Source: Panacibacter microcysteis (GTDB lineage Bacteria; Bacteroidota; Bacteroidia; Chitinophagales; Chitinophagaceae). Taken from it: a stretch of 64,000 bases of DNA. Both the position numbers and the translations under genes were made by a program. Under the pieces are notes generated by a model that was given only the letters and a program-made list of their open reading frames with translations, was not told where the DNA came from and ran no database searches. Below, one piece after another: positions 1,455-63,940 of the stretch. The stretch covers positions 340,422 through 404,421 of the forward strand of contig NZ_JADWYR010000003.1 in NCBI RefSeq assembly GCF_015831355.1, written 5' to 3'. Numbering within the stretch: the stretch's first letter is position 1; the number at the start of each line of letters is the position of its first letter.

Positions 1455-1510
1455 GGCGTTGAAGTGAGTGACACAACGAAGCTCAATAGCACTACCGCAG
1501 CCGGCTGAAA
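1455..1510 (-). repeat. Interspersed repeat R01 (degenerate, B-type core)
   Basis: GTTGTGTCACTCACTTC on the minus strand at 1464-1477 plus arm-like flank; between tandem DUF1624 paralogs. Confidence 0.5.
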
Positions 1511-1515
1511 AAAAA

Positions 1516-2709
1516 TTATATATAGCTCAGCCACCACTGCCGGTGTGTTGCACGGTAGCGGTTAAACCACTTACATGGCCAGTACAGTACTACAACCACG
1601 ATGATCCATACAAGATAAACCACCCACAGATCGAAGCCGTACTTAACAGGCCTGAACAGGAACGGTAAGTTGGGATCAATGATTTCATGTACACCATGCC
1701 CGGAAGCAAAAAATGCAATTACACAAAAAAGATGGATCAGGTAAAAGTGCAACACATAATATAAAAATGGTACGCGGCCATAAGTGATAAGTATGGCTGA
1801 CACCCTGTTTTGCACATGCCCGATCAATGATAATACGATGAGTGCCGGCCCGATCGTCATGCACAGGTATAGTAGTGATGCGGGGTACTTCGTTGTGTTG
1901 ACAAATGAGAAAATTGTATAAAGTACCGATGTTTGCGCAGCCCACGGTTTGGGATCTCCATACCCGTTGATAAAACGTAATACAACAAACAATAATGTTG
2001 TTGCAATGCCAAGAGTCATTAATGCCTGTTTTCTTTTTCCTGCTGTTACCTGCGGCAGAAAATATTTACCTGCCGCATAGCCCAGCAGCATTACGCCTGT
2101 CCATGGCAGTATAGCATACACATCGAGAAAGCCTCTTTGCGCTGTGTAAGGAAAAAAAGCAAATGCACCTTTAAAAAGGATGGTGTAAACCACATATGCA
2201 GGCCCCTCCTGCGGAGGCTGTATGTAATCAATTATGTTATGGCCCGCTGTAATTATAAGACCGGTTATAAAAATCACCGGCAGTGATGTTCTTACCAGTA
2301 AACCAAGAATGATCATGCTGCAGCCAATTGCCCATATGACCTGCAAAATAAAAACGTTGTAAAGCGGGTTAAACGTCCAGCCAAGCGTAATTACAATCAA
2401 TTCCACAAACACCAGCCACAGGCCTCTTTTAATAAGGAAGATACTGTGCTCTTTGGTTGTTTTTTTCTGCCCTGCAAGAAATGCTGATGTGCCGGACAGG
2501 AAGAGAAACACGGGTGCGCAGAAATGTGTTATCCACCTGGTGAAGAACAACAACGGTGTGGTGGTGGCAAGATTGGTGGGGTCATCGTCAAATGCATGAA
2601 TATGGAAAAAATCTCTTACATGATCCAGCGCCATAATGATCATTACAGCACCACGCAGTATATCTATTGAGACGATCCTTTTGGCTGGCTGGTTGCCTGG
2701 GTTACTCAT
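1516..2709 (-). CDS. DUF1624-like polytopic membrane protein, paralog 2 (tandem duplicate)
   Basis: 397-aa ORF colinear with 190..1368 and sharing its motifs. Confidence 0.7.
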   Translation of the reverse strand: MSNPGNQPAKRIVSIDILRGAVMIIMALDHVRDFFHIHAFDDDPTNLATTTPLLFFTRWITHFCAPVFLFLSGTSAFLAGQKKTTKEHSIFLIKRGLWLVFVELIVITLGWTFNPLYNVFILQVIWAIGCSMIILGLLVRTSLPVIFITGLIITAGHNIIDYIQPPQEGPAYVVYTILFKGAFAFFPYTAQRGFLDVYAILPWTGVMLLGYAAGKYFLPQVTAGKRKQALMTLGIATTLLFVVLRFINGYGDPKPWAAQTSVLYTIFSFVNTTKYPASLLYLCMTIGPALIVLSLIGHVQNRVSAILITYGRVPFLYYVLHFYLIHLFCVIAFFASGHGVHEIIDPNLPFLFRPVKYGFDLWVVYLVWIIVVVVLYWPCKWFNRYRATHRQWWLSYI

Positions 2710-2825
2710 ACAAATCAGTTGGTCAGGTAAGGTATATATTTTTTTATTATTCCAACAGGCAAAATGTTAATATGCACCAAGCATGTGCTAATAAACAATG
2801 AGTTTGTAACTTTACAAATAGTAAT

Positions 2826-3926
2826 TTGGCGCTTACTAACGAATCACTATTTCTTCACTTCCAATTGTTTGTCATGGCGAATGTATTTGAGTTTTTATAC
2901 AATGAGGTGGTTTCCTTTTTTAGTATTGGTGGCGTTATAGAGATGGTAAAAAAAGGCGATTACAGCAAGCTGCATACGTTAGACGGTGTAATATCTGTAG
3001 TAGTACCTTTTGTGCCATTCCTGTTACTGATTGAAATTATCCGCGCTGCATTTTATAAGAAGTTTAAAGTAGATGATTACCGCGTGCCGTTTTTCATATT
3101 CATTGCAAACAGGCTTATCTCAAGAGTTATTTCGGTTGCTGCGGTGGCTTTCTGTATCGGCCTTTTTGAAAAGTTCGCCATTTTTAAAACATCGTTTACC
3201 TGGTACTGGTTTATCTATGGATATGTTGTTTGGGAGCTGGCGCATTTCGTATATCATTTCCTGGCACATAAGGTTAGAATATTGTGGTGCTTACACTCCA
3301 CGCACCATGCGCCGGAGCAGATGAATTTATCAGTAACCTATGCGCATTTTTTCCTGGAGGCACCGTACGCAGATTTTATAAGAACATCTATTTGCATTCT
3401 ACTGGGTGTAAATCCGCCATTGTTATTTTTTATCATGTTCATAGATGGCACATGGGGCGGTTTTATACATGTAGGGGAGAATATTATAAAAAACGGCAGG
3501 CTTGGTTTTCTTAACCGTTTTATTTTAACGCCGTCACATCACCGGGTGCACCATGCAAAAAATGTGCAATACATGGATACCAATTTTTGCAACCTTCTCA
3601 ATATTTGGGACAGGGCTTTTGGCACATACCAGGATGAAAAAAGAGAGTTGCCCATTCAGTACGGCATTACAAGAAAGATTAACCCGCGCAATTTCTGGGA
3701 TGTTTACTTTGGTGAAATTTATTATTTGTTCATCGACATGAAAAATGCACCCGGGCTGAAGAATAAACTTCTTTACATGATTATGCCGCCGGGCTGGAGC
3801 CACACAGGCGATCACAAAACCTCAAAAGTGGCCAAACAAAAACTGGCAGAAGACGAGGTGAAAGGAGAACATGAGACCATTTACGTATCCACAGGCAATG
3901 CCGAAAAAGAAGCAGCAGTTGTTTAA
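2826..3926 (+). CDS. Fatty acid hydroxylase / sterol desaturase family membrane protein
   Basis: Histidine boxes HFLAHK, HSTHH and HHRVHH; membrane helices; start codon uncertain. Confidence 0.6.
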   Translation: MALTNESLFLHFQLFVMANVFEFLYNEVVSFFSIGGVIEMVKKGDYSKLHTLDGVISVVVPFVPFLLLIEIIRAAFYKKFKVDDYRVPFFIFIANRLISRVISVAAVAFCIGLFEKFAIFKTSFTWYWFIYGYVVWELAHFVYHFLAHKVRILWCLHSTHHAPEQMNLSVTYAHFFLEAPYADFIRTSICILLGVNPPLLFFIMFIDGTWGGFIHVGENIIKNGRLGFLNRFILTPSHHRVHHAKNVQYMDTNFCNLLNIWDRAFGTYQDEKRELPIQYGITRKINPRNFWDVYFGEIYYLFIDMKNAPGLKNKLLYMIMPPGWSHTGDHKTSKVAKQKLAEDEVKGEHETIYVSTGNAEKEAAVV

Positions 3927-3952
3927 TACTAATGTTACGGGCATAGCCCTTC

Positions 3953-4016
3953 GTGGCATCGCCTGTTGTGTCACTCACTTGTACAATAGTATTTTATGGC
4001 GGCTGCAGCGATCACA
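3953..4016 (+). repeat. Interspersed repeat R02 (B-type core)
   Basis: GGCATCGCCTG + TTGTGTCACTCACTTGTAC (3966-3984) + TTTTATGGCGGCTGCAGCG; 27 bp after stop of 2826..3926. Confidence 0.8.
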
Positions 4017-4207: not shown

Positions 4208-4999
4208 ATGTTCCGGATTAAAGACCAGTTACAGCGCATTGTTACTTTAGTGCATCATCCACCACGCAGTATTGTCTCACTCGTTCCTTCGCAAACAGAG
4301 CTGTTATTCGATCTTGGCCTTGATAAAGAAGTGGCAGGTATTACAAAATTTTGCGTGCATCCCGAACAGTGGTTCAGGCAAAAGCAACGGGTAGGTGGTA
4401 CAAAAAATGTGGACATTGCAAAAGTAAAAGCCCTTCAACCGGACCTTATTATTGCAAACAAAGAAGAGAATGTGAAAGAACAGGTAGAGGCGCTCTCGGC
4501 TTTTGCACCGGTATGGATCAGTGATGTAAACACACTCGTCGATGCACTGGCTATGATCAATACTATCGGTGCCATTACGGCACGGGAAACACGGGCAGCA
4601 GAGATCACCACACGCATTAGTCAATTTTTTAAACAGCCAGTTGGTAACGATCGTAAGATTCGTGTATGTTACCTCATTTGGAAAGACCCCTACATGACTG
4701 TTGGTGGAGATACGTTTATCAGTGATATGCTGGCATATTGTGGTTTCGAAAATGTTTGCGTTGCAAAAAATCGCTACCCTGTTATTACTGTGGCAGAGAT
4801 AAAGGATTTAAACCCTGCAGTGGTTTTACTCTCATCTGAACCCTTCCCGTTCAAAGAAAAACATATTGATGAACTAAAACATGTATTGCCTGGTGTAAAG
4901 GTTATGCTGGCAGATGGTGAAATGTTTAGCTGGTATGGCAGCAGGCTTTTGTATGCTGCTGATTACTTCAGGAAGTTGCGGACAGTGCTTAGTGACTGA
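4208..4999 (+). CDS. Periplasmic binding protein, BtuF/TroA-like (helical backbone metal receptor)
   Basis: 263-aa ORF; composition typical of cobalamin/iron-siderophore ABC substrate-binding proteins. Confidence 0.55.
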   Translation: MFRIKDQLQRIVTLVHHPPRSIVSLVPSQTELLFDLGLDKEVAGITKFCVHPEQWFRQKQRVGGTKNVDIAKVKALQPDLIIANKEENVKEQVEALSAFAPVWISDVNTLVDALAMINTIGAITARETRAAEITTRISQFFKQPVGNDRKIRVCYLIWKDPYMTVGGDTFISDMLAYCGFENVCVAKNRYPVITVAEIKDLNPAVVLLSSEPFPFKEKHIDELKHVLPGVKVMLADGEMFSWYGSRLLYAADYFRKLRTVLSD

Positions 5000-5006: not shown

Positions 5007-5084
5007 GGCTGCAGTCGCGTTAACATTCCGGCGTACAAGAGTGCGACGCAACGATGCTGATGAGCGGTCAAATGCCTGGCTCAT
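5007..5084 (-). repeat. Interspersed repeat R03 (A-type core, reverse)
   Basis: GTACAAGAGTGCGACGCAA at 5033-5051 with ATGAGCCAGGC-type arm on minus strand. Confidence 0.8.
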
Positions 5085-9949: not shown

Positions 9950-9983
9950 AAACTCCTGCAATTTTTGCGGGAGTTTTTTTTAT
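9950..9983 (+). terminator. Rho-independent terminator of sucC
   Basis: ACTCCTGCAATTTTTGCGGGAGT hairpin followed by TTTTTTTTAT; the repeat element starts immediately after. Confidence 0.7.
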
Positions 9984-10068
9984 GTACCCGGCAGCAGTGC
10001 TGCTATTAAACTTTGGTTGCGTCGCACGCTTGTACTGCATATCATTATGCAGCAAGGTGCTACCGGCG
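9984..10068 (+). repeat. Interspersed repeat R04 (A-type core), full length
   Basis: GTACCCGGCAGCAG...TTGCGTCGCACGCTTGTAC (10017-10035)...TATGCAGCAAGG; starts at sucC terminator T-tract. Confidence 0.85.
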
Positions 10069-10177
10069 TAAGCTTTTTACAACCATTTTATTTGCGGTGT
10101 TGCAAAACTTAATAAAGAAGAGTGATCATAAGGAAGTGGGAGGAAAGCGCAACGAAAAGATGCCATAAAAACCATCA

Positions 10178-10235
10178 GTACAAGTGAGTGACACAACCGG
10201 CGATGCCATGAAAAACGATTGCCGGTTACAAAAAC
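10178..10235 (-). repeat. Interspersed repeat R05 (B-type core, reverse)
   Basis: GTACAAGTGAGTGACACAA at 10178-10196 + CCGGCGATGCCATGAAAAA; abuts stop codon of 10236..10895 (minus). Confidence 0.85.
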
Positions 10236-10895
10236 TTACTGCATCAGGTTTAAATGCAGCTCGCCAAAATTTTGTAATGATGAAATCCTGAGATCTGCAA
10301 TAACCCATTTCTCACTCTTTTGCTGGCTGAAATGTGGCACCACCACGCATTTCATGCGGGCTGCTTTTACGGCAATAAGACCGGGAAATGAATCTTCGAA
10401 ACAAATACATTCCAGCGGGTCTGCATTTAATGCAAGGGCACAATCCAGGTAAACCTGTGGGTGTGGCTTGCCATGGGGTAAGTTTTCTGCCGACGCCTTT
10501 GCCTGCACAAACTGTTGCAGACCGCACATTTCAATAGCCTTATCAATCATACCCAGCGGTGAAGAAGATGCAATGCCTATTTTAAAACCGCGCTCATGAA
10601 AGAAGCGGAAGATGTACGGCACGCCCGGCATAACTCTGCCTTTCTGTTCTATTTTTTCAATTACTTTTTCGAAGATCAGTTTTTCTGCACGGGCATGTTC
10701 TGCATCGCCCAGGTTGAAATGCTGAAACCACCATTGCACAAATTCTTTTGTACGCAAACCTGTAGTGGAATGATATTGTTCTTCAGAAAGGGAAACGCCG
10801 TACATCCTGAAAACTTCTGCTGCTGCTTCGTTCCAGAGTGGTTCGCTGTCGATCAAAAGTCCGTCCATATCGAAAATAGCCGTATTCAGTTGCAT
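10236..10895 (-). CDS. HAD-IA family hydrolase (beta-phosphoglucomutase-like)
   Basis: FDMDGLLIDSE motif I and HAD motifs II-IV. Confidence 0.7.
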   Translation of the reverse strand: MQLNTAIFDMDGLLIDSEPLWNEAAAEVFRMYGVSLSEEQYHSTTGLRTKEFVQWWFQHFNLGDAEHARAEKLIFEKVIEKIEQKGRVMPGVPYIFRFFHERGFKIGIASSSPLGMIDKAIEMCGLQQFVQAKASAENLPHGKPHPQVYLDCALALNADPLECICFEDSFPGLIAVKAARMKCVVVPHFSQQKSEKWVIADLRISSLQNFGELHLNLMQ

Positions 10896-16244: not shown

Positions 16245-16312
16245 GATACACCCGGAAGAGCTGATGCATGATACGGTGTACAAGAGTGCGACGCAACAGG
16301 TGCTTAATACTT
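16245..16312 (-). repeat. Interspersed repeat R06 (A-type, reverse)
   Basis: GTACAAGAGTGCGACGCAA at 16278-16296; creates a spurious N-terminal extension of folE. Confidence 0.8.
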
Positions 16313-16348
16313 ATTCAAAAGTCTGGCTCACAAAAAATAAAAACTACA

Positions 16349-16948: not shown

Positions 16949-16968
16949 TGTTACAGGCATTGGCACAT

Positions 16969-17032
16969 GTGGCATCGCCTGTTGTGTCACTCACTTGTGC
17001 GTTCCGTTTATGTGGCAACTGTAGCGATCAGG
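16969..17032 (+). repeat. Interspersed repeat R07 (B-type)
   Basis: GGCATCGCCTG + TTGTGTCACTCACTTGTGC (16982-17000) + TTTATGTGGCAACTGTAGCG; 21 bp after folE stop. Confidence 0.8.
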
Positions 17033-21183: not shown

Positions 21184-21214
21184 GCAGATGAACGGATTGC
21201 GACGCAACGATGCC
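21184..21214 (-). repeat. Interspersed repeat R08 (partial, C-type)
   Basis: GCAGATGAACGGATTGCGACGCAACGATGCC, matching the GGCATC..GTTGCGTCGCAATCC.TTCATCTGC variant seen at 27759. Confidence 0.6.
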
Positions 21215-21251
21215 CAACCAGGGTGATTAGCTGGTATCCATATTTTTTTTT

Positions 21252-21332
21252 GAACCAGGCACCATTGCTACTGTAAAGCGTTCCTTGCGTCGCACTCTTG
21301 TGCTGCATATCAATATTCAGCAAGGCACGATC
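21252..21332 (+). repeat. Interspersed repeat R09 (A-type), full length
   Basis: GAACCAGGCACCATTGCTACTGTAAAGC...TTGCGTCGCACTCTTGTGC (21285-21303)...TATCAATATTCAGCAAGG; preceded by a T10 tract. Confidence 0.85.
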
Positions 21333-25158: not shown

Positions 25159-25258
25159 GCGCCGGCCGCTGCTGACTATTGAACCGAAAGTACAAGTGTG
25201 CGACGCAACAGGCGATGCCATAAAATACAGTTGCCGGGTACCAAAAAATCAAACCAGT
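25159..25258 (-). repeat. Interspersed repeat R10 (A-type variant, reverse), full length
   Basis: GTACAAGTGTGCGACGCAA at 25190-25208, CAGGCGATGCCATAAAATAC arm; abuts stop of CBS gene (minus). Confidence 0.85.
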
Positions 25259-26636: not shown

Positions 26637-26710
26637 AAGTAAGGGTTTTGTATTGTATGGAAGAACGAAGGAAAAAAGGCATTAATGAACCCGGCATTTG
26701 AATGATGATT

Positions 26711-26775
26711 GAGCTGTTGTTGCGTCGCACTCTTGTACTGCAGCAAAAAGCCCGGCACCCTGTAGCGCAACAACG
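26711..26775 (+). repeat. Interspersed repeat R11 (A-type)
   Basis: TTGCGTCGCACTCTTGTAC at 26720-26738 flanked by GTTGTTGCG / CGCAACAAC inverted repeat; upstream of CBS gene. Confidence 0.8.
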
Positions 26776-27203
26776 TAATGGATTACTATTTTGGGCAGTT
26801 AAAGAAGGTGACCCTTTTTACAGTAATCGCTATACCGGTATAGACTAAACCGCGGTTTTTGTAGTACAAACCGTGACAAGTTGTAGTAATACTTAACATT
26901 CTGCACAAATGTTTATAAAAACAGGCATAAATAATAAATAACATACTTATATTTAAGGAGCAGAACTAATTATCGTAAACGATTGCTCCCCAAGCGTATG
27001 AACAAGCAACTAACAACGGACAATGCTTTTTCATTCAGGATATTGAAAAGGCATTTGAATGAAGATGGATTTTCTACCAGGCAGAAGAGTACAAATCCGC
27101 TTTATTCTTACAGAAATTTATTGTGGTTTTCTTTAGGCTATTGTGCACTTTTAGTGTCAGCGGTACTGGCTATTATTACGTAGTTGTGTAAACGATTGCG
27201 TAA

Positions 27204-27758: not shown

Positions 27759-27823
27759 GTACTGCAGATGAAAGGATTGCGACGCAACAGGTGATGCCAT
27801 GAAAAACTGCTGCCGGTATTACT
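27759..27823 (-). repeat. Interspersed repeat R12 (C-type, reverse)
   Basis: GTACTGCAGATGAAAGGATTGCGACGCAACAGGTGATGCCATGAAAAACTGCTGCCGGTA; 10 bp after stop of 27833..29284 (minus). Confidence 0.75.
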
Positions 27824-29758: not shown

Positions 29759-29839
29759 GTTTACTTATTTAGACTGGCCAAAGGGTGCAACACCCTTCTT
29801 CCAAAATGATTTAAAATTGTTGAATTTCTTACTGGCTGT

Positions 29840-30037: not shown

Positions 30038-30854
30038 GTTTAATAATCTTGTCGATTACTCCCTGCCGGCGGTCCCTTTCTGCAGAGACACTTGTTGAGC
30101 CATACGGGAAATGGGCGGCAAAAGTAGGAATAAATTTATTTATTGCCAATGTTTTGCGCAAATTTCTGTTTATAAGCCTTTAACATACCTCTCCGGTAAA
30201 GCCATATATAAATTCAGGGCATGGAAAATCTACGATAATGGTAGGCATTAACAGATCTGCAACAACGTTTAAAAAGCTATATTGCCTTTCCTACCGCATA
30301 TTTACCTTTTAACCAACTACTTTTTGCCGCTCATAATACATACTTTACCACTTGTGAAACCGCAAGTCCCGCTTGTACCGTATAGGCCCATGGAAATATT
30401 CAAACTCGATATATCTTTACTCAATCAAACCAAACAGGAGCAAGCTCCAACGTAAAATGATCAAAAAATTTCTGGATACTCTTTTTGCAAATTTCAGGCA
30501 AAGAGTTAAACCACCGGAAATCTCCAGCCTGTAATATTTCCTACACAGTAAAGATTCTGCCGACACGCAAAGCGCAAAACGCACAACGTATTTTTTCAAA
30601 CCAAGATTTACAGATCATGAAACCAATCATTCTGGTGATCCTGGGTGCTGGTATCGTTATGCACCTGGTACACCACAACGATCATACACATAATACTGCT
30701 ATCAGAATGGAAGGTAAAACACAACCGCAGCAACCTCCGCTTACCGAAATGATCAATGATTCGGCAACAAGAGTAAGCGAAGCCACATTGTCAATACCGC
30801 AACTGCCTTAATGCTGATGATACACTTCACAATGGCGTGTATATACTTTGCTTT

Positions 30855-30880
30855 TGCATGCGTCGCCACTATTGTATGGA
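30855..30880 (+). repeat. Interspersed repeat R13 (degenerate core only)
   Basis: TTGCATGCGTCGCCACTATTGTATGG resembles TTGCGTCGCACTCTTGTAC. Confidence 0.4.
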
Positions 30881-30926
30881 ATAGTGCCCTCGTACTAAAG
30901 GCATGCGTGTAGTACATAACGGTTTC

Positions 30927-31000
30927 GCATATGCTGCATGCAGTACTGCTGTACAAGAGTGCGACGCAACCAAAGCTTAATGCTTTTATTGCAGCCTGGC
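30927..31000 (-). repeat. Interspersed repeat R14 (A-type, reverse), full length
   Basis: GTACAAGAGTGCGACGCAA at 30951-30969; minus strand reads CCAGGCTGCAATAAAAGCATTAAGC...core...TGCATGCAGCATATGC. Confidence 0.85.
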
Positions 31001-31040
31001 TACAAAAAATTAACACTTAAAACAATAAAAAACAACAATT

Positions 31041-32960: not shown

Positions 32961-32973
32961 ATTATGTTATAAT

Positions 32974-33002
32974 ACCACGGCAATTGTGCCGTGGTTTTTT
33001 TA
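32974..33002 (+). terminator. Rho-independent terminator of flotillin gene
   Basis: ACCACGGCAATTGTGCCGTGGT followed by TTTTTTTAT; repeat R15 starts directly after. Confidence 0.7.
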
Positions 33003-33060
33003 TGTACCGGGCTGCATTGCTACTATGAAGCGTCTGTTGCGTCGCACACTTCAACACTGG
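33003..33060 (+). repeat. Interspersed repeat R15 (A-type, 3' end truncated)
   Basis: TGTACCGGGCTGCATTGCTACTATGAAGC...TTGCGTCGCACACTTCAAC (33037-33055); starts at flotillin terminator T-tract. Confidence 0.8.
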
Positions 33061-35649: not shown

Positions 35650-35722
35650 ACAGATGCCATAAATGAGGAACCATGAACCGAGCGTGGCAACAGGCGATGC
35701 CAAAAGATATAATGCCGGCTAC
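35650..35722 (-). repeat. Interspersed repeat R16 (decayed copy, core lost)
   Basis: Retains CAACAGGCGATGCCAAAAG and CATGAACC / CATAAATG arm motifs but not the core. Confidence 0.4.
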
Positions 35723-37659: not shown

Positions 37660-37690
37660 AGGGAGATCGGAAACGGTCTCCTTTTTTTAT
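37660..37690 (+). terminator. Rho-independent terminator of yajC
   Basis: GGGAGATCGGAAACGGTCTCC followed by TTTTTTTATTTGG; repeat R17 starts directly after. Confidence 0.7.
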
Positions 37691-37781
37691 TTGGTAGTCT
37701 GCAGTAGTAATTTATGGCATCGCCTGTTGTGTCACTCACTTGTACTGCAGGTTTTCATGGCGGCTGCAGCGTTGCGGGTAG
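37691..37781 (+). repeat. Interspersed repeat R17 (B-type), full length
   Basis: TTGGTAGTCTGCAGTAG...TTTATGGCATCGCCTG + TTGTGTCACTCACTTGTAC (37727-37745) + TGCAGGTTTTCATGGCGGCTGCAGCG; starts at yajC terminator T-tract. Confidence 0.85.
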
Positions 37782-39517: not shown

Positions 39518-39600
39518 AATACCCGCATAGCCCAATATGGTTATACTGTACAAGAGTGCGACGCAACAGCTGTTTAATTGCAGTACTGCAGCTGGCACCA
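39518..39600 (-). repeat. Interspersed repeat R18 (A-type, reverse)
   Basis: GTACAAGAGTGCGACGCAA at 39548-39566; lies 36 bp past uvrA stop (minus). Confidence 0.8.
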
Positions 39601-39635
39601 AAATAAATTGTATGAACAGCTAACGGGTAATGTTG

Positions 39636-43513: not shown

Positions 43514-44086
43514 ATGAGTAACGACCTAATCCTTCAGATCAGCAACCGCATAAAAGAAAAAAGAAAAGAACAGAAAATAACACTGCAGGAACTGGCAGCG
43601 GAAGTGGGCGTTACCAAAGGCCTGATCTCGCAGATAGAGAATAGCCGCACGGTTCCCTCACTTACAGTGTTACTCAGCATCATAAAATCCCTGCATGTAG
43701 ATCTGAATGATTTTTTTGACAAGCTGGATACATCATCCAGCAACGAGCCGCTTATTATCAGGGCCGGCGAGATATCTACCATAGAAAAAGAATACACCAA
43801 AGGCACCCATTATTTTCGCATCACTTCTTTCAAGCACCAGGGCAAACTCGTAGACGTAGTGTTGTACAAGCAGGAGAAAACGGCAAGAAAAGGCTATGTA
43901 TCTACACAGGCGCATGAATTTGATTACATGCTGAAAGGTAAAATGCAGTACACAATAGAAGGAAAAAAGTATGTGCTGGAGGCCGGCGATTCCTTCTACT
44001 ACGATGCCCGCAAAGAACACCACACCAAGTGCTTAAGTGAAGAGCCCTTTGAAATGCTGGTCGTTTATTTTTTTGACGAAGAATAA
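43514..44086 (+). CDS. XRE-family HTH transcriptional regulator with C-terminal cupin domain
   Basis: N-terminal HTH_XRE (ITLQELAAEVGVTKGLISQIENSR) plus cupin barrel. Confidence 0.75.
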   Translation: MSNDLILQISNRIKEKRKEQKITLQELAAEVGVTKGLISQIENSRTVPSLTVLLSIIKSLHVDLNDFFDKLDTSSSNEPLIIRAGEISTIEKEYTKGTHYFRITSFKHQGKLVDVVLYKQEKTARKGYVSTQAHEFDYMLKGKMQYTIEGKKYVLEAGDSFYYDARKEHHTKCLSEEPFEMLVVYFFDEE

Positions 44087-44092
44087 TTTTTT

Positions 44093-44172
44093 GGGCCAGG
44101 GCAGCATTGCTACTATCAGGCTTTTCTTGCGTCGCACTCTTGTACACCAAAACACTATGCAGCATAGTGCAC
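44093..44172 (+). repeat. Interspersed repeat R19 (A-type), full length
   Basis: GGGCCAGGGCAGCATTGCTACTATCAGGC...TTGCGTCGCACTCTTGTAC (44127-44145)...CTATGCAGCATAGTGC; 6 bp after XRE-cupin stop and its T-tract. Confidence 0.85.
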
Positions 44173-44354
44173 CTCCGTTAATTTTTTCACTCATCATCCT
44201 GCTCATGATTAGCGCTATACCCGCCTGAAATTGCCAACTGTTGATTTATGCATAAACACGGGCAGCAAAGCCTGTATGTCACTTTTTCATCAGGTATTCA
44301 TAAACAGCTTTGCCTGCAGAAAAAATAGTTTAGTAATACTGAACATTTTAAGCA

Positions 44355-44440
44355 TGGTGCGCAGGCCGGGCTGAACAATGTTCTGAACGTACAAGTGAGT
44401 GACACAACAGGAGCTGAAGCCAGTAATACAGCCGGTTTTC
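44355..44440 (-). repeat. Interspersed repeat R20 (B-type, reverse)
   Basis: GTACAAGTGAGTGACACAA at 44389-44407; minus strand reads CCGGCTGTATTACTGGCTTCAGC...core. Confidence 0.8.
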
Positions 44441-44609
44441 AAATTTTTCCTCTTAGTATAAGAAAAACATTTCTGAGTATAGTATTTATAAAATTATTAA
44501 ATTGTTAAGCAGTAAAAGTTTACAATTACTTTACTATTTGTTAATGATTGCTTGTGACATATGGAGGGATGGATAAATAATTTCGCCACCAATTAACCAA
44601 ATTAACGTT

Positions 44610-49628: not shown

Positions 49629-49640
49629 TAATTAATAATA

Positions 49641-49715
49641 TTGAACCGGCTGCATTACTACTATGAAGCATCGTTGTGTCACTCACTTGTACGGCAGTAT
49701 GCACTTCAGCATATG
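49641..49715 (+). repeat. Interspersed repeat R21 (B-type core with A-type arms), full length
   Basis: TTGAACCGGCTGCATTACTACTATGAAGC...TTGTGTCACTCACTTGTAC (49674-49692)...GTATGCACTTCAGCATATGC; follows SusD terminator. Confidence 0.85.
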
Positions 49716-49781
49716 CAAACGGTGTTTGTAAGCAATAGCTTTTCTTAACTATAGAGGCAACAGCTATAAGATATTTCGCCG

Positions 49782-49850
49782 GGGGCTGGCAACTGCTCAA
49801 TATTGTTATGGCGTACAAGAGTGCGACGCAACAGGCGATCAGTAAAGTAC
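49782..49850 (-). repeat. Interspersed repeat R22 (A-type, reverse)
   Basis: GTACAAGAGTGCGACGCAA at 49813-49831 + CAGGCGATC; creates a spurious N-terminus for the AP-family gene. Confidence 0.8.
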
Positions 49851-49877
49851 AAAAGATTGGCTCATAAAATTTATACC

Positions 49878-51529: not shown

Positions 51530-52215
51530 TGAAAGATATTAAGCTTGTAGTGTTTGATATTGCAGGAACAACGGTAAAAGATCATGGAGAAATAGCTACC
51601 GCTTTTCACGATGCAATGAAAGAAAGCGGTTACGATATACCGCATGAAAAAATTTACCCGTTAATGGGTTACAAGAAACCCGAAGCAATAAGAATGATGC
51701 TCGAAGAATATGAATCTGATGTGGCTGCAATAACAACAGCTTATATCAATGCTATTCACGACAGGTTTATTGCTCTAATGGTTGCATACTACCGGTCAAC
51801 AGATCAGTTACAGGCATTGCCACATGCAGAAGAGGTCTTTGCCTGGCTGAAAAAGCATGACATCAGGATTGGGCTAGATACCGGATTCTCAACAGATATT
51901 ACCAGTATCATCATCGAAAGACTTGGGTGGCTAAAAGACAACAAGATCGACTATGTTGTTTGTAGTAATGAAGTAGCCGCAGGCAGGCCACAGCCTTACA
52001 TGATTCAAAAAATGATGAAGGCGGCAGGAATTGCTGATGCAAAACAGGTCATTAAGATTGGCGATACAGAAGTCGATATAAACGAGGGTAAAAATGCAGG
52101 TTGCCTCTATACAATTGGTATAACTACCGGCGCGTTTACAAGAGCAGCACTGCAGCCTTATGATCCCGATTTTATAATAGACGATCTTATAGAGCTGATT
52201 GAGATAATACAGTAA
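51529..52215 (+). CDS. HAD-superfamily hydrolase, phosphonatase (PhnX)-like
   Basis: VVFDIAGTTV motif I; overlaps the HD gene stop (ATGA coupling). Confidence 0.65.
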   Translation: MKDIKLVVFDIAGTTVKDHGEIATAFHDAMKESGYDIPHEKIYPLMGYKKPEAIRMMLEEYESDVAAITTAYINAIHDRFIALMVAYYRSTDQLQALPHAEEVFAWLKKHDIRIGLDTGFSTDITSIIIERLGWLKDNKIDYVVCSNEVAAGRPQPYMIQKMMKAAGIADAKQVIKIGDTEVDINEGKNAGCLYTIGITTGAFTRAALQPYDPDFIIDDLIELIEIIQ

Positions 52216-52218
52216 AAT

Positions 52219-52298
52219 TTTGAGCCGGACTGCATTGCTGCTATGTAGCTTTTGTTGCGTCGCACTCTTGTACTGCAACATGTAACGCAGCAATGTTC
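52219..52298 (+). repeat. Interspersed repeat R23 (A-type), full length
   Basis: TTTGAGCCGGACTGCATTGCTGCTATGTAGC...TTGCGTCGCACTCTTGTAC (52255-52273)...TGCAACATGTAACGCAGCAATG; 4 bp after HAD gene stop. Confidence 0.85.
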
Positions 52299-52351
52299 GA
52301 AGCCGTCCCATCTACACCGTCATCATTCTTACCGGTACTCAAAAGCAATCC

Positions 52352-55553: not shown

Positions 55554-55634
55554 GCCGCATCGTTGCTGCATAGCGATATACAGTACAAGAGTGCGACGCA
55601 ACAGGAGGTGAATGCTTATGCTGCAGCCTGGCCC
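55554..55634 (-). repeat. Interspersed repeat R24 (A-type, reverse), full length
   Basis: GTACAAGAGTGCGACGCAA at 55583-55601; minus strand reads GGCCAGGCTGCAGCATAAGCATTCACC...core...TATATCGCTATGCAGCAACG; about 10 bp after GH13 stop. Confidence 0.85.
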
Positions 55635-55645
55635 ATCATCATTTC

Positions 55646-56990: not shown

Positions 56991-57085
56991 TTTTTTTGTT
57001 AACCGGCTGTTGAATAAGTATGGGGCTGTTGTTGTGTCACTCACTTGTACTGCAGAAGCTTTATGCAGCTTTACGAAGCAGGTTG
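56991..57085 (+). repeat. Interspersed repeat R25 (B-type)
   Basis: TTTTTTTTGTTAACCGGCTGTTG...TTGTGTCACTCACTTGTAC (57032-57050)...TGCAGAAGCTTTATGCAGC; between divergent genes. Confidence 0.75.
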
Positions 57086-57130
57086 GCACCTTTGCACCAT
57101 ACTTTATCCTGCACCTCAAACACAAACATC

Positions 57131-58042
57131 ATGCAACAATACAACCGTAGAAAATTTATACAGCAAACAACAGGTTTGTTGGGCGCCGCATTTGCAGGTT
57201 CTCTTATGGGTTTTACAGCAAAAGACATCTTACTTTCTTTTTCTACACTCGGCTGTCCCGACTGGGGGTTTGAACAAATTACCAACTTTGCCCAGAGCAA
57301 CAGTTTCAACGGCCTTGAAGTAAGAGGCATACTCAGGGAGATGGATCTTACCAAAAGCCCTGTTTTCAGCAAGGCCAATATTGCTGCAACAAAGACAATA
57401 ATGCAGGATAAAAACCTGCGGTTTGTAAACCTTGGCTCATCTGCCACACTGCATTTTAAAGCGGCAGCAGACAGGCAGAAAAATATAGACGAGGGCAAAC
57501 GGTTTATAGATCTTGCGCATGCAATAGATTGCCCTTACATACGTGTATTTCCGAATAACTTTCCAAAAGAGCAGGAGAAGCAGGAGACCATAGAACTTAT
57601 TACAGATGGCTTGGCAACACTTGCTACTTACGCCAAAGGCAGCAACGTTACGGTACTTATGGAAACACATGGAGATATGGTGTGGGTTGCAGATATTCTA
57701 AGCATAATGAAAAATGCATCAGGTGCACATGCAGCACTTATCTGGGATGTAGCGAATATGTGGAATATTACCAAAGAACCGCCTGCAGAAGTATATCCTA
57801 AACTAAAACCCTATATAAAGCACACGCATATTAAAGACAATACACTTGATAATGATAAGATTTCGTACACACTCATGGGAAAAGGTGTAGTGCCCATTTT
57901 TGAAGCAATAGACCTGTTGCACAAAGACGATTATAAAGGTTACTACAGCTTTGAATGGGAGAAACTCTGGCATCCTGAAATTGATGCTCCGGAGATTGCC
58001 ATTGCAGATTATGCAAAAACGATGCAGGCGCATTTTGGTTAA
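57131..58042 (+). CDS. Sugar phosphate isomerase/epimerase (xylose-isomerase-like TIM barrel) with Tat signal
   Basis: RRKFIQ twin-arginine motif; TIM-barrel family; upstream extension MGLLLCHSLV... overlaps repeat R25 and is rejected. Confidence 0.65.
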   Translation: MQQYNRRKFIQQTTGLLGAAFAGSLMGFTAKDILLSFSTLGCPDWGFEQITNFAQSNSFNGLEVRGILREMDLTKSPVFSKANIAATKTIMQDKNLRFVNLGSSATLHFKAAADRQKNIDEGKRFIDLAHAIDCPYIRVFPNNFPKEQEKQETIELITDGLATLATYAKGSNVTVLMETHGDMVWVADILSIMKNASGAHAALIWDVANMWNITKEPPAEVYPKLKPYIKHTHIKDNTLDNDKISYTLMGKGVVPIFEAIDLLHKDDYKGYYSFEWEKLWHPEIDAPEIAIADYAKTMQAHFG

Positions 58043-61146: not shown

Positions 61147-61208
61147 GTATTGATTGCTGTAAGCTACTCTTTTTCACAGGCAAATCTTTATGCAATCGTT
61201 TGATAGAT

Positions 61209-61270
61209 TTTATGAGCCAGGCTGTATTACTACTATGAAGCTTTCGTTGCATCGCACTCTTGTGCTGAAT
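61209..61270 (+). repeat. Interspersed repeat R26 (A-type variant)
   Basis: ATGAGCCAGGCTGTATTACTACTATGAAGC...TTGCATCGCACTCTTGTGC (61247-61265). Confidence 0.8.
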
Positions 61271-61339
61271 AACTTTATTCAACACATTTACAGTTTGGTT
61301 TTATTTGTTTGTGCCGCTGGAAGATTGCAGATGTAACAC

Positions 61340-61438
61340 CTTCGATCCGCATCGCTGCAGTCGCCATGAAAACCGAACGTACAAGTGAGTGACACAACCG
61401 GCGATGCCATGAAATACTACTGCTGGTATCCAAAAACT
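61340..61438 (-). repeat. Interspersed repeat R27 (B-type, reverse), full length
   Basis: GTACAAGTGAGTGACACAA at 61379-61397 + CCGGCGATGCCATGAAATACTACTGCTGGTATCCAAAAAC; minus-strand copy begins at T-tract of fusA terminator. Confidence 0.85.
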
Positions 61439-61500: not shown

Positions 61501-61546
61501 GAACGGGGCTTCCTATCACTTATTACTTAAAACTTATTACTACACG

Positions 61547-63697
61547 CTAGTCTTCAATCTTCACTTTGCCTTTGTTCTTTGCCATCACTTCTTCTGCAAT
61601 GTTGTTTGGTGCAGGTGAATAGTGGCTAAACTCCATGGTAGAAGTTGCACGGCCTGAAGAAAGCGAACGTAACTGTGTTACATAACCAAACATTTCACTC
61701 AATGGAACTTTGGCTTTAATAACCTGTGCATTACCACGGCTATCCATGCCTTCCAGCATACCACGACGACGGTTAAGGTCACCTGTTACATCACCCATGT
61801 ATTGGTCTGGAGTGATAACTTCTACTTTCATGATCGGTTCAAGCAAAGTTGGTTTTGCTTTACGGCCAGCTTCACGGAAACCAGATTTTGCACAAAGTTC
61901 AAAAGACATAGAGTCAGAATCCACATCATGGTAGCTACCATCAAATATGCGGATCTTCATATCTCTTACAGGGTAACCTGCAAGCACACCTGTACTCATA
62001 GAAGTTTCAAAACCTTTCATGATCGCAGGAATGAACTCTTTAGGTATAGAACCACCAAAGATGTCGTTTATAAATTGGAAGTGCTTGCCTTCATTTTCTT
62101 TCAGCCACTCAGCATCAGCAGGTCCTATTTCAAACTGTATGTCGGCGAATTTACCGCGACCACCAGATTGTTTTTTCAGGATCTCACGGTGCGTTATGGT
62201 ATTGGCAAATGCTTCTTTATAAGCAACCTGTGGCGCACCTTGGTTCACTTCTACTTTAAACTCACGTCTCATACGGTCTACGATGATCTCCAGGTGAAGC
62301 TCACCCATACCACGTAAAATTGTTTGACCGGTATCTTCATCTGTATTTACACGCAGTGTAGGATCTTCTTCTACCAGCTTTGCAATGGCCATACCCATTC
62401 TGTCAACGTCTGCCTGTGTTTTAGGCTCAACGGCGATAGCAATTACCGGCTCAGGAATAAACATGTTTTCCAGCGTGATAGGATGGTTTTCATCACACAA
62501 TGTATCACCGGTTTTGATTTCTTTAAAACCTACTGCTGCTGCAATATCACCAGCTTCGATGAAATCGATCGGGTTTTGCTTGTTGGCAAACATTTTCATG
62601 ATACGGCTGATACGCTCTTTCTTGCCACTTCTTACGTTCAATACATAAGAACCGGCATCAAGGTGACCGCTATAACAACGAAAGAACGCCAAACGACCAA
62701 CGAAAGGATCGGTCATAATTTTAAACGCCAACGCTGCGAATGGTTCTTTGGGATCTGGCTTGCGTACCAGTTCTTCACCTGTAGAAGGATCTGTACCTTT
62801 AATGGCTTCAATATCAACAGGAGAAGGCAGGTAGCGGCAAACAGCATCCAGTGCAGTTTGTACACCTTTATTCTTGAAAGATGAACCGCACATCATTGGT
62901 ACAATGCTAAGGTCGATACACGCTTTGCGTATCGCCTCATGCACTTCATTCTCAGAAATAGATGTTGGGTCATCAAAGAATTTCTCTAATAATTTATCAT
63001 CATATTCAGCTACTGCTTCTATCAGGTTTTGCCTCCACTCTTCAGCTTCAGCCTGCATATCTGCCGGAATAGGAATTTCTTTGTAAGTCATACCCTCTGT
63101 AGCATCATCCCATATAATACCTTTCATGGTAATAAGGTCAACAACACCTTTAAAGTTGTCTTCTGCACCAATAGGTAACTGCAATGGAACTGCTTTCGCA
63201 CCCAGCATTTCTTTAACCTGTGCAACTACCATCAGGAAGTCAGCACCGCTGCGGTCCATTTTGTTTACAAAGCCAATACGTGGTACGCTGTAACGGTTAG
63301 CCTGGCGCCAAACTGTTTCAGACTGAGGTTCTACGCCGTCAACTGCTGAGAACAATGCAATAAGGCCATCCAGTACACGCATAGAACGCTCTACCTCAAC
63401 GGTAAAGTCAACGTGGCCGGGAGTATCAATAATATTAAAGTAGTATTTCTTGGTGTCCGGAGTTTGCGTTCCCTTATCGGTAGGGAAAGCCCACTGGCAG
63501 CTTACGGCTGCTGAGGTAATGGTGATACCTCTTTCTTTTTCCTGCTCCATCCAGTCGGTAGTTGCAGCACCTTCATGCACCTCACCAATTCTGTGAATCA
63601 TACCGGTGTAGCGCAGGATACGCTCGGTGGTAGTGGTTTTGCCGGCATCAATGTGAGCGGCGATACCAAAGTTGCGTTGTAATCTGAGATCAGCCAT
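61547..63697 (-). CDS. fusA: Elongation factor G (stand-alone copy, not in str operon)
   Basis: [10 protein letters not shown]1 motif, DTPGH, NKMDR; full 716-aa EF-G architecture. Confidence 0.9.
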
Positions 63698-63867
63698 AAA
63701 AAATGAATATTTTAGTTTTCGGGCGGCAAAGGTAGTAAAATCTCCCAGAAATCAATGTTTTAAACTAAACTTAACACCTTTTGGGGAAAACATTTTTAGC
63801 CGCCTGTTTTACACGGTCGTCTCACCGGATATCACCCGTTAAAAGAATCATGGATCCGGCAATGGAA

Positions 63868-63940
63868 CCCTGTGGCATCGCTTGTTGCGTCGCACCCTTG
63901 TACAGTATAGCCATGGGCATCACATCCGGGTGCAGCGGCG
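63868..63940 (+). repeat. Interspersed repeat R28 (A-type variant)
   Basis: CTGTGGCATCGCTTG + TTGCGTCGCACCCTTGTAC (63885-63903) + AGTATAGCCATGGGCATC...GGTGCAGCGGCG. Confidence 0.8.

Follow-up and report, generated by a model that had tools for sequence, protein, structure and literature searches.

A dense intergenic repeat family with an asymmetric 19-bp core and alternating orientation in Panacibacter microcysteis

The repeat family in the window

The window, a stretch of 64,000 nucleotides from a contig of the soil bacterium Panacibacter microcysteis, contains sucC, folE, yajC, a SusC/SusD pair, fusA and other genes, between which a real repeat family recurs at a density of about one copy per 2.3 kb (Table 1). 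All 28 copies listed in a sequence-only reading of this DNA have been located, 24 with a full or near-full core, two of which stop after core position 15, and four with a partial, variant or decayed core. Every core position given in that reading carries the A-type or B-type core ascribed to it, and the copies described as partial or decayed at 1464, 21195, 27776, 30855 and 35680 are all real. Searches of the window at up to three mismatches give 15 A-type and 10 B-type matches against a chance expectation of 0.01–0.04, the locus at 25190 being matched by both, and a profile built from 210 copies gives 25 significant matches.

All window copies are intergenic, and stand-alone cores inside genes are absent from the window, every match at up to three mismatches falling within an element. 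Pfam searches of the window ORFs find no transposase, integrase or RAYT, in agreement with the earlier statement that IS elements and such genes are missing here. The same reading held that nearly every intergenic region longer than 100 bp carries a copy, which is overstated: among regions of at least 100 bp, copies occur in 5 of 5 convergent and 15 of 19 tandem regions but in only 1 of 8 divergent ones (56992..57083), or 21 of 32 overall. Several copies lie 3' of an intrinsic terminator that belongs to the upstream gene, with the T-run common to both; those at 10017, 33037, 37727 and 49674 are placed after such a terminator.

The unit is about 80 bp long and consists, in this order, of a T-tract, a CC(R)GC box, a variable 5' arm, the core and a poorly conserved 3' arm. 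When 210 copies are aligned on the core without gaps, the resulting profile retains information in the T-tract (-39..-32), in CC(R)GC (-29..-25), in the core itself and in ..TTCAGC (+33..+37), indicating that the spacing within the unit is fixed. The core is 19 bp long, asymmetric and nearly invariant, TTG[C/T]GTC[G/A]C[A/T]CNCTTGTAC. Among about 240 cores, position 11 is the sole freely varying position, and positions 3 and 7 occur only as C:G (158) or T:A (79), with 4 exceptions; the commonest minor variant is A17G. A third core type (C-type, TTGCGTCGCAATCCKTTCATCTGCA) is common to the partial copies at 21198-21229 and 27778-27819, and a fourth (D-type), present in the partial copy at 35687-35721, recurs in a relative. 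Copies diverge by about 20–40% in their arms, and the T-tract differs among copies in both length and composition, in many cases coinciding with a terminator T-run. The modular make-up proposed earlier is borne out, core types combining with different arm types into discrete sub-families with shuffled modules.

Table 1. Copies of the repeat in the window, with strand and gene context
Copy	Position	Strand	Context
B-type core variant (TTGTGTCACTCACTTCAAC), ends after core position 15	1462..1517	-	T-tract abuts stop of gene 1516-2709; orthologous copy in L122
Full, B core	3932..4011	+	begins at stop codon of gene 2826-3926
Full, A core	5012..5084	-	3' arm abuts stop of gene 4208-4999
Full, A core, G at free position 11	9977..10066	+	left half of convergent doublet; T-tract is U-tract of sucC terminator hairpin (about 9950-9982); also after sucC in L122, L019, L125, L185
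Full, B core	10156..10237	-	right doublet half; T-tract abuts stop of gene 10236-10895
Full, A core	16263..16337	-	T-tract 13 nt upstream of folE start (16349)
Full, B core ending GTGC	16949..17030	+	begins at folE stop
Partial, C-type core TTGCGTCGCAATCCGTTCATCTGC	21198..21229	-	
Full, A core ending GTGC	21245..21332	+	
Full, A core, A at position 11	25159..25249	-	after stop of cystathionine beta-synthase-like gene 25260-26636
A core, short 3' arm	26682..26746	+	44 nt upstream of start of gene 25260-26636, divergent orientation; orthologue in L038
Partial, C-type core TTGCGTCGCAATCCTTTCATCTGCAG	27778..27819	-	
Decayed core (TTTTGCATGCGTCGCCACTATTGTATGG)	30852..30879	+	from sequence reading; no nhmmer detection
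Full, A core	30914..31010	-	T-tract 32 nt upstream of SPFH/flotillin gene start (31041); 5' cap likewise in L185 and L184
A-type core variant (…CACTTCAAC), ends after core position 15	32997..33051	+	T-tract is U-tract of SPFH gene terminator
Partial, D-type core TTGCCACGCTCGGTTCA	35687..35721	-	
Full, B core	37687..37767	+	immediately 3' of yajC terminator hairpin
Full, A core	39528..39607	-	after uvrA-like gene 39636-42467
Full, A core	44086..44176	+	left doublet half
Full, B core	44369..44447	-	right doublet half; upstream of SusC/SusD pair
Full, B core	49638..49719	+	left doublet half, after susD
Full, A core	49783..49872	-	T-tract 7 nt upstream of next gene's true start (49878)
Full, A core	52214..52301	+	begins at stop of gene 51529-52215; no counterpart at orthologous site in more distant L116
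Full, A core	55565..55636	-	after stop of alpha-amylase gene 55646-56926
Full, B core	56992..57083	+	upstream of Tat-signal gene starting 57131
Full, A core, 2 mismatches	61207..61293	+	left doublet half
Full, B core	61355..61437	-	right doublet half, after fusA (61547-63697)
A core, C at position 11	63847..63913	+	upstream of fusA, divergent orientation

Folding, coding and promoter tests

The arms had been read as imperfect inverted repeats folding into a long hairpin. This anatomy is rejected because complementarity between the 5' and 3' arms of one copy does not exceed that between arms of different copies (score 10.94 vs 10.91, p = 0.55), RNA folding of 8 copies gives z-scores that range from -2.2 to +1.65 and average close to 0, and RNAalifold on 80 copies finds zero pairs on either strand. 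No coding frame stays open, each being open in 17–50% of copies, and a unit contains no terminator. Copies show no preferred orientation with respect to the genes around them, with 56 sense and 59 antisense copies in tandem gene pairs among 175 copies surveyed. The earlier suggestion of a structured 3'-UTR or small-RNA module is also rejected: copies point either way regardless of gene direction, the TAnnTTTG sequence of the Bacteroidetes -7 box is at background level (3 of 210 copies), and several copies lie past terminators.

Range, age and conservation of the core

Rfam gives nothing at the gathering threshold for the whole window and nothing at E ≤ 10 for the single doublet region searched at that limit, a full-text literature search with an 11-nt core stretch returns unrelated papers only, and a 91-nt copy has zero matches in the PLSDB and INPHARED collections. 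The genome-wide count is not low. The family is undescribed and unnamed and specific to part of the Chitinophagaceae, and its description as lineage-specific and very dense stands. The core is common to many genera of this family with a patchy distribution: three Panacibacter-like loci have 7–13 copies per ~21 kb, one MAG has 2, Sediminibacterium, Filimonas and REEB404 have 0, and the element-free relatives carry no analogous repeat.

In the syntenic relative L122 (78–86% nucleotide identity), all seven copies of window 1–17 kb are found at orthologous sites, and no presence/absence polymorphism is seen in comparisons at 75–99% identity. Six of these copies have a recognisable core in both genomes, and for them identity between the window and L122 is 111/114 (97%) in the core, 81% in CC(R)GC, 74% in the 5' arm, 68% in the T-tract, 61% in the 3' arm and 41–53% in the flanks; the three differences within the core include one at free position 11. 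Judged from these comparisons, the copies are old, stable and vertically inherited. That just one core position varies freely speaks against simple recency and against blanket homogenisation, and it implies selection on individual positions by a reader of the sequence; on this pattern the core is under position-specific purifying selection, and gene conversion among thousands of copies could account for part of its conservation. At one orthologous site a nearly identical 5' arm is kept with a different core, B-type at 10178 in the window and D-type at 11765 in L122, indicating that modules are exchanged.

Alternating orientation and possible modes of action

Neighbouring copies are opposite in orientation in 116 of 136 cases and the same in 20. 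This is also seen among neighbours more than 400 nt apart (92 vs 17) and on IMG/VR contigs (33 vs 10), the latter including L153, a Mu-like prophage in which copies are located between phage genes. The window has 19 of 23 neighbours opposite when strong matches are counted and 26 of 28 after the partial copies are read in, the decayed core at 30852..30879 (+) restoring alternation between 27778(-) and 30951(-). Gene direction has no bearing on the alternation. Among close pairs, 30 are convergent, 1 is divergent and 3 are direct, and the doublets lean to two different core types, 19 of 30 being mixed and none B/B.

An RNA-level element, namely a 3'-UTR or 5'-UTR module, an RNase processing site, a Rho-loading site or a small-RNA gene, would fit the location of 16 of 24 window copies downstream of a gene that runs in the same direction, the core lying 34–52 nt past the stop codon in nine of them. 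In one variant, complementary cores of inverted neighbours would pair in read-through transcripts and bracket genes. Alternation would allow such 19-bp duplexes in any long transcript, same-type cores are mildly enriched in gene-bracketing (-,+) pairs (40 of 57), and A17G would be wobble-compatible. However, sense and antisense copies are equally frequent, the unit lacks a conserved fold, a promoter box and a terminator, its pyrimidine richness is only mild (C-G skew +0.12 in the 5' arm), and the four copies named above lie past the upstream gene's terminator. In addition, neighbours often differ in core type, and a comparison of the two cores predicts mispairs at 3 of 19 positions. We regard an RNA-level action as improbable.

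Uptake signals are orientation-independent, Chi is skewed with replication, and neither alternates. The alternation seen here, a unit of ~80 bp with fixed accessory boxes, which is far larger than either signal, and the confinement of cores to elements make a DUS/USS-like or Chi-like signal, kept by molecular drive and not by per-locus function, very improbable, even though the density is of DUS/USS order, the core types form family-wide "dialects" (A, B, C and D), inverted pairs lie at gene 3' ends, and orthologous sites are conserved while some related genera lack the family. We know of no report of competence in the Chitinophagaceae.

The repeat may instead be an ancient MITE- or REPIN-like element that depends on a transposase, for instance of HUH/Y1 (RAYT-like), IS110-like or DDE type, whose gene lies at another place in the genome and which binds or cleaves the core. 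On this reading the replicative unit would be the convergent doublet, T-runs at gene ends the preferred target, and alternation a by-product of doublet birth or the result of an enzyme that makes direct-repeat neighbours lethal. An identical core despite patchy spread across genera, the shuffled sub-families, the avoidance of divergent promoter regions and the variable T-tracts, whose frequent coincidence with terminator T-runs fits a target preference, are consistent with this, and the copies in the Mu-like prophage indicate that the family entered new DNA at some time. The lean of doublets to different core types resembles the REP heterodimers that have been reported together with a scarcity of head-to-tail dimers (PMC3733652). 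A strict MITE is nevertheless rejected, since a unit has no terminal inverted repeats, no target-site duplication is seen at doublet flanks, and presence/absence polymorphism is missing at 75–99% identity. No transposase is found beside copies in 120 loci, in which genes were crude longest-ORF calls, and the arm divergence among copies speaks against a recent burst. In a decaying selfish family, cores should disappear at the neutral rate, yet here they are far better conserved than the arms, and doublet birth alone does not explain why about 60% of (+,-) intervals hold conserved housekeeping genes. A non-autonomous mobile element is therefore rather unlikely, albeit a serious candidate.

We tentatively favour a REP/BIME-like but non-palindromic DNA recognition element working as inverted pairs. 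The nearly always opposite orientation of neighbours and the lack of a hairpin suggest a DNA site read by a putative protein. The same core in many genera, the all-or-little density and the absence of an analogous repeat from element-free relatives imply a cognate factor, and we infer that such a reader exists; nothing suggestive of one is seen in the window, and no neighbouring gene family recurs across the 120 loci. The core would be the recognition site of this putative sequence-specific trans-acting factor, most likely a DNA-binding or DNA-processing protein, and the T-tract and CC(R)GC box, which lie at constant distances from the core and on the same side of it, would probably assist recognition. 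The reader presumably binds double-stranded DNA; single-stranded DNA or RNA may be what it binds. The element would act at the DNA level, not as folded RNA, and in inversely oriented pairs, so that gene blocks would be capped at both ends with T-tracts facing inward and two capped blocks that meet would bring their caps together as a convergent doublet. Pairing of neighbouring sites through synapsis, looping or insulation would be the reason for alternation. Since close relatives lack the element, any host function would be dispensable, and a selfish origin fits equally well. The REP/BIME-like part of the earlier classification holds for the genomic ecology: like REP/BIME sequences, the Panacibacter repeat avoids divergent promoter regions and forms inverted doublets that lean to two different core types, and unlike them it is not palindromic.

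Architecture of the element

Searches of the window with the two 19-nt cores bore out every position that the sequence-only reading had given for them. At up to three mismatches the A-type core, TTGCGTCGCACTCTTGTAC, has 15 matches and the B-type core, TTGTGTCACTCACTTGTAC, has 10, against a chance expectation of 0.01–0.04, and a single locus, at 25190, is matched by both. A common unit is visible when the 70 nt on either side of every core match are read, and an nhmmer profile built from 210 copies gives 25 significant matches in the window. The five copies described as partial proved genuine at relaxed thresholds and on direct reading; two of them have in common a third core type, C, TTGCGTCGCAATCCKTTCATCTGCA, and one carries a fourth, D, TTGCCACGCTCGGTTCA, which is seen again in a relative. 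The total is 28 copies in 64 kb, all 28 of them intergenic.

A core-anchored, ungapped profile of 210 copies from the window and other genomes contains four conserved blocks (see the table) and no conservation beyond −45 or +41, and so the unit is about 80 bp long with fixed internal spacing. The consensus of about 240 cores is TTG[C/T]GTC[G/A]C[A/T]CNCTTGTAC, in which position 11 tolerates any base and the bases at positions 3 and 7 go together in two combinations, C:G in 158 copies and T:A in 79, with four exceptions. The cores of the tightest doublets, which are two close copies in inverted orientation, lie just 24 nt apart, so the element can do without its 3' arm. A further 3' module, GCTTTTAYCGAAGCG-N-AGAT(T)GAAG, which contains a small GCTT/AAGC stem, lengthens the unit to about 125 nt on 18 copies in other genomes (loci L002, L026, L038, L041, L054, L056, L061, L064, L067, L084, L086, L092, L095, L098, L106 and L109) and is on none of the window copies. 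A copy with a shortened core lies beside an apparent tRNA gene in L125, a locus of another Panacibacter species.

Coordinates of the element's conserved blocks and of individual features
Sequence	Position	Feature	Remark
Core-anchored profile	−39 to −32	T-tract	conserved block
Core-anchored profile	−29 to −25	CC(R)GC	conserved block
Core-anchored profile		19-nt core	conserved block
Core-anchored profile	+33 to +37	..TTCAGC	conserved block
Window	9950-9982	Terminator hairpin, sucC	T-run is the following element's T-tract
Window	32965-32996	Terminator hairpin, SPFH gene	T-run is the following element's T-tract
Window	37662-37690	Terminator hairpin, yajC	T-run is the following element's T-tract
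Window	10156-10237	Copy with B core	orthologue of L122 11765-11807
Window	35687-35721	Partial copy with D core	
Window	16268-16349	Long ORF extending back through an element	true start farther downstream, 16349
Window	49803-49878	Long ORF extending back through an element	true start farther downstream, 49878
Window	57020-57131	Long ORF extending back through an element	true start farther downstream, 57131 (Tat-type RRKFI signal)
Window	26758-27203	Long stretch without a called gene	
Window	29414-29758	rplT	minus strand
Window	29759-30484	Long stretch without a called gene	upstream of rplT
Window	30485-30811	Weak ORF	plus strand
L122	10720-11700	Tandem array of about 1 kb, periods 67 and 156 nt	unrelated repeat GGAGATTGCCACAGCTTTGC...AGTAAAGCTTCGCAATGACGAAA
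L122	11765-11807	Copy with D core	orthologue of window 10156-10237
L125	199-330	Element with shortened core (…CACTTCAAG)	apparent tRNA gene beside it, opposite strand (…GGGACTCGAACCCGCCACC…)
L153	7580-12980	Early region of Mu-like prophage	MuA-like protein of 675 aa, MuB-like AAA+ protein of 323 aa, DUF3164, DnaA-C-like HTH protein

The arms had been read as inverted repeats that fold the unit into a long hairpin, which is not borne out by single-copy folds, RNAalifold, mutual information or an arm-complementarity test. RNA folding of eight copies gives z-scores from −2.2 to +1.65, about zero overall, with differing structures; RNAalifold on 80 copies returns zero consensus pairs on either strand; and mutual information in the anchored alignment reveals neighbour and sub-family effects only. 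Arms of the same copy are as complementary to each other as to arms of other copies (10.94 vs 10.91, p = 0.55), and the same inverted-arm score (p = 0.55) gives no terminal inverted repeats within the unit. At the gathering threshold Rfam finds tRNA-Gly alone in the whole window, and at E ≤ 10 a search of one doublet region returns matches on the sucC terminator and two at chance level (E > 3) that overlap a repeat. An element acting at the level of RNA, such as the structured 3'-UTR or small-RNA module that had been suggested, is quite improbable.

Several other candidate functions were rejected. Some copies yield hydrophobic peptides, but no frame stays open as a small ORF or signal peptide; no reading frame stands out, the best being uninterrupted in 50% of copies. 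The element does not form a promoter of its own, as its T-run plus G is not the Bacteroidetes sigma-A −7 box TAnnTTTG, which occurs in 3 of 210 copies vs 1.3% in control windows, that is, at background. A sigma-54-like TGGCAT-N-TTGC read from the sequence is confined to a single sub-family of arms, where its spacing is incorrect, and the pyrimidine bias is weak for a Rho-loading (rut-like) site. An intrinsic terminator is rejected too: the T-tract comes before the element, not after a G+C-rich hairpin, and the hairpin that lies upstream of the T-tract in about 4 of 24 window copies is the upstream gene's own. Two parts of the core, CTTGTAC and CGTCGCAC, resemble CTTGTAC...CGTCACAC near position 1400 of 16S rRNA; we attribute this resemblance to chance, since the parts come in a permuted order and about one 7-mer match is expected.

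Gene context and alternating orientation

Pfam scans of the window ORFs agree with the sequence-only reading in finding no transposase, integrase or RAYT, and show housekeeping genes only (sucC, folE, fusA, uvrA, rplT, nusB, yajC, a SusC/SusD pair and others). A companion transposase was also rejected as a recurring neighbour, since all-against-all clustering of 870 ORFs from 121 sequences (120 listed loci and the window) yields no recurring neighbour family.

The strand of a copy, + or −, is the orientation in which it reads from T-tract to 3' arm. By crude ORF calls in the fetched loci, this orientation is independent of gene direction within tandem gene pairs (56 sense, 59 antisense), and further copies lie between convergent (37) and divergent (23) genes. 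Among window intergenic regions of at least 100 bp, a copy is present in 5/5 between convergent genes, 15/19 between tandem genes and 1/8 between divergent genes. The T-tract side lies close against a gene end, the 3'-arm side usually being more distant from genes. When the upstream gene is co-directional, the distance from stop codon to core peaks sharply at 40–45 nt, and in several cases the T-tract doubles as the U-tract of that gene's terminator; at L019, a locus from another genome, the sucC hairpin has a different sequence and the element still comes after it. At gene 5' ends the T-tract lies 7–60 nt from the start codon. The three longest ORFs that extend back through an element have their true starts farther downstream, and automatic gene callers may stretch N-termini too far across elements. 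Two window stretches, 26758-27203 and 29759-30484, are long and lack a called gene; the latter probably contains minus-strand rpmI/infC, in preference to the weak plus-strand ORF next to it.

Neighbouring copies alternate in orientation. In the 123 sequences with matches, neighbours are opposite in 116 cases and the same in 20; the counts are 82 vs 16 when the window, L125 and the syntenic relative L122 are left out, and 33 vs 10 in IMG/VR contigs. At a cut-off of E ≤ 1e-3 the orientation string of L125 is -+-+-+-+-+-+. Strong matches in the window alternate in 19 of 23 pairs, and with the partial copies read in the figure is 26 of 28. Counted as one token per intergenic region, 19 of 21 boundaries fit, where independence would give about 53% (own arithmetic, p about 3e-4). 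Three simpler origins of the alternation were rejected. Doublets alone do not account for it, as pairs more than 400 nt apart are still opposite in 92 cases vs 17. If T-runs at gene ends were occupied independently, about 53–60% alternation and many blocks capped at one end would be expected, contrary to observation: gene blocks are either capped at both ends, with T-tracts inward, or capped at neither. Purging of deletion-prone direct repeats fails because next-nearest copies are already direct repeats.

Close pairs, with core-to-core gaps of 24–250 nt, are convergent (+,−) in 30 cases, divergent in 1 and direct in 3. The convergent pairs combine A and B cores in 19/30 and B with B in 0/30, and each such doublet is the junction of two capped blocks; divergent (−,+) pairs are almost never spaced below about 1 kb. 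In the one close comparison, between the window and L122, both (+..−) intervals carry indels and all four (−..+) intervals are conserved, which is a small sample. One of the two holds an extra DUF4846 gene in L122, and the other holds the 1-kb tandem array of an unrelated repeat, which lies precisely between the halves of a doublet that in the window measures 142 nt core to core. Kindred GTCATTGCGAGG..CGAAGCAATC motifs lie beside copies in two loci from other genomes, L034 and L046; the motif GCTTCGCAATGACG is not found in the window.

To our knowledge, alternation of repeat orientation across genes has no earlier description. A full-text literature search found none, and searches on an 11-nt stretch of the core, on Chitinophaga MITEs and on alternating orientation returned nothing relevant.

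Range, persistence and exchange

The SucC protein encoded in the window has the same sequence as SucC of Panacibacter sp. DH6. A scan of 185,579 species genomes with the degenerate core found at least 120 stretches. Among the matches listed, all titles more specific than phylum are Chitinophagaceae, Chitinophagales or Chitinophagia; they include MAGs of Segetibacter, Ferruginibacter, Flavisolibacter, Lacibacter, Niastella and Chitinophaga and the isolates Foetidibacter luteolus and Limnovirga soli. Density was taken from loci chosen around a gene (sucC for most, the SPFH gene for P. ginsenosidivorans) and not around a core, and so is unbiased for the element. Thirteen copies lie in the 21 kb of L125, 13 in 22 kb of P. 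ginsenosidivorans (L185, complete genome CP042435.1), 7 in 20.5 kb of the close relative L122 and 2 in 21 kb of the MAG L129, with none in 21 kb each of Sediminibacterium goheungense, Filimonas zeae and the MAG REEB404. The distribution is patchy across the sampled loci, and no analogous repeat with another core was found in the element-free relatives.

A 91-nt copy has no match among PLSDB plasmids or INPHARED phages. IMG/VR contains 54 stretches with the core, on contigs several of which may be host DNA. One of them, L153 (IMGVR_UViG_2920066549_000002), is a Mu-like prophage, since it encodes MuA-like, MuB-like and DUF3164 proteins, and it has elements between its genes. Its early region contains three in the order +,−,+, every T-tract pointing towards a phage gene end.

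L122 is collinear with window positions 1–19 kb at 78–86% nucleotide identity, and each of the seven copies in this part of the window has its L122 orthologue at the same site and in the same orientation. In the six pairs with recognisable cores, the core is identical at 111/114 positions, followed by CC(R)GC (81%), the 5' arm (74%), the T-tract (68%), the 3' arm (61%) and the flanks (41–53%). About 30–40 core differences would be expected at arm-like rates; three were found, one of them at position 11, which varies freely. That the core stays constant apart from this position while the arms drift speaks for position-specific selection in situ, which would imply a putative trans-acting reader of the core sequence.

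L019, L125 and L185 likewise have a copy behind the sucC terminator, and the SPFH gene of P. ginsenosidivorans is bracketed by copies as in the window. Related IMG/VR contigs at 75–99% identity have all copies in common, site differences appearing solely against the more distant genomes L038 and L116; neither L122 nor these contigs contain an empty site. There is therefore no sign of recent mobility. Reading of the flanks of single copies and of the doublet 10017/10178 found no direct repeats, short duplications being of a kind that old copies could lose, and doublet edges carry a T-run on the left and an A-run on the right, which are inverted and not direct.

Orthologous copies in the window and L122 that carry B and D cores, respectively, have 5' arms identical at 30/33 positions (own count), so core modules are exchanged between copies. 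Given this exchange (the window copy at 10178 and its L122 orthologue), gene conversion probably contributes to the pattern. Shuffled modules, the patchy distribution and the copies in a prophage would also suit an ancient non-autonomous mobile element whose transposase is encoded elsewhere in the genome. Insertion polymorphism and terminal inverted repeats are absent, however, and the cores are not decaying, so that this origin is possible and rather doubtful.

Comparison with known systems

We tentatively favour a DNA-level, REP/BIME-like but non-palindromic element, the core of which would be the recognition site of a putative factor and which would function, or be tolerated, only as inverted neighbours. 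Like the REP/BIME repeats of Enterobacteria and Pseudomonas, it is very abundant and strictly extragenic (7–13 copies per ~21 kb in relatives), concentrated in intergenic regions that include a gene 3' end and scarce between divergently oriented genes, kept within a lineage, and mostly without an adjacent transposase. It also shares their inverted dimers, often of two sub-types, with head-to-tail arrangements nearly absent; REPs are described as forming inverted dimers often of two sub-types, head-to-tail dimers being scarce (PMC3733652). However, a REP is an imperfect palindrome of 20–40 bp with a GTAG or CGTC tag, whereas the present unit is about 80 bp and non-palindromic, with a 19-bp asymmetric core and a T-tract at fixed spacing. 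Folds, RNAalifold and arm complementarity reveal no REP stem-loop, and there is no unpaired tag: the A core has CGTC (GCGTCGC) without an adjacent hairpin and the B core has TGTC. Furthermore, BIMEs alternate inside a cluster, whereas the element alternates across whole genes over kilobase distances. Of the proposed MITE-, REP- or BIME-like nature, the REP/BIME ecology thus stands, whereas the palindrome, the terminal inverted repeats and the insertion polymorphism do not.

As in REPIN–RAYT systems, an inverted doublet recurs as a unit, persistence is long and inheritance vertical, and a single trans-acting enzyme is presumed elsewhere in the genome. The halves of a REPIN are hairpins that pair with each other, whereas here the two halves of a doublet tend to differ in core type, show no evident kinship between their arms in the four window doublets and vary in core gap; most copies, moreover, are single with genes between. 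Pfam scans reveal no RAYT (Y1 HUH transposase) in the window, nor is any gene family recurrent beside copies in the 120 listed loci. MITEs (Correia CREE/NEMIS of Neisseria, ERIC, pneumococcal RUP/BOX) are alike in being intergenic, 80–125 bp long and modular in sub-families, with hundreds to thousands of copies. Unlike them, the element has no terminal inverted repeats and, in the comparisons made, no insertion polymorphism; no target-site duplication was seen at the flanks read, and the constraint is reversed, since MITE ends are constrained whereas here the core is constant and the ends drift. The element fails the REP-defining tests and those for MITE terminal inverted repeats and insertion polymorphism; it also fails the Rfam-family, intrinsic-terminator and Bacteroidetes-promoter tests. 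Its position-specific constraint exceeds that of REPs and MITEs, which would imply a putative reader of the sequence in a family of bacteria that has been little studied.

With the DUS of Neisseria and the USS of Pasteurellaceae the element has in common a similar density, family-wide conservation in several dialects, and the occurrence of inverted pairs after genes. DUS and USS, however, have cores of 9–12 bp that also lie within genes and function independently of orientation, whereas the element is about 80 bp, exclusively intergenic and alternating; every core match at up to three mismatches in the window falls in an intergenic element, and enrichment in coding DNA was not found. A signal of the DUS or Chi type is highly improbable.

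The shufflon of plasmid R64 has seven sfx sites in about 2 kb beside the Rci recombinase gene, and its exon segments are shuffled. By analogy, the element may be said to resemble it formally: sfx is likewise a 19-bp asymmetric repeat with one conserved and one non-conserved side, alternately inverted and separating segments. The element differs in an extrapolated thousands of sites genome-wide that flank housekeeping genes, and in its unrelated sequence; the window encodes no recombinase in Pfam scans, and no inversions are seen against L122 over 20 kb at ~80% identity. It is unlikely, though conceivable, that the 19-bp cores are polar sites of a genome-wide pair-wise DNA system, either a chromosome-wide shufflon or a bacterial analogue of convergent-site domain boundaries. 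A factor at two neighbouring, inversely oriented cores would then synapse or collide with its partner, and housekeeping blocks would be held as capped units, that is, as loops, insulated neighbourhoods or invertible or exchangeable segments. New DNA would collect in a permissive zone between two 3' arms, as the small L122 sample might suggest.

The alternation offers a concrete experimental handle on how interspersed repeats organise bacterial chromosomes, and cultured strains with complete or draft genomes exist (P. ginsenosidivorans Gsoil1550, Foetidibacter luteolus, Limnovirga soli). If the window is typical, a Panacibacter genome would contain roughly 2,000–3,000 copies, about 3–5% of the genome and around a quarter of its intergenic DNA. 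The extrapolation uses two densities, 28 copies per 64 kb in the window and 13 per 22 kb in P. ginsenosidivorans, whose genome measures 5.5 Mb. Copies of the element put short-read assembly and binning at risk, and the 19-mer is a marker for a subset of Chitinophagaceae.
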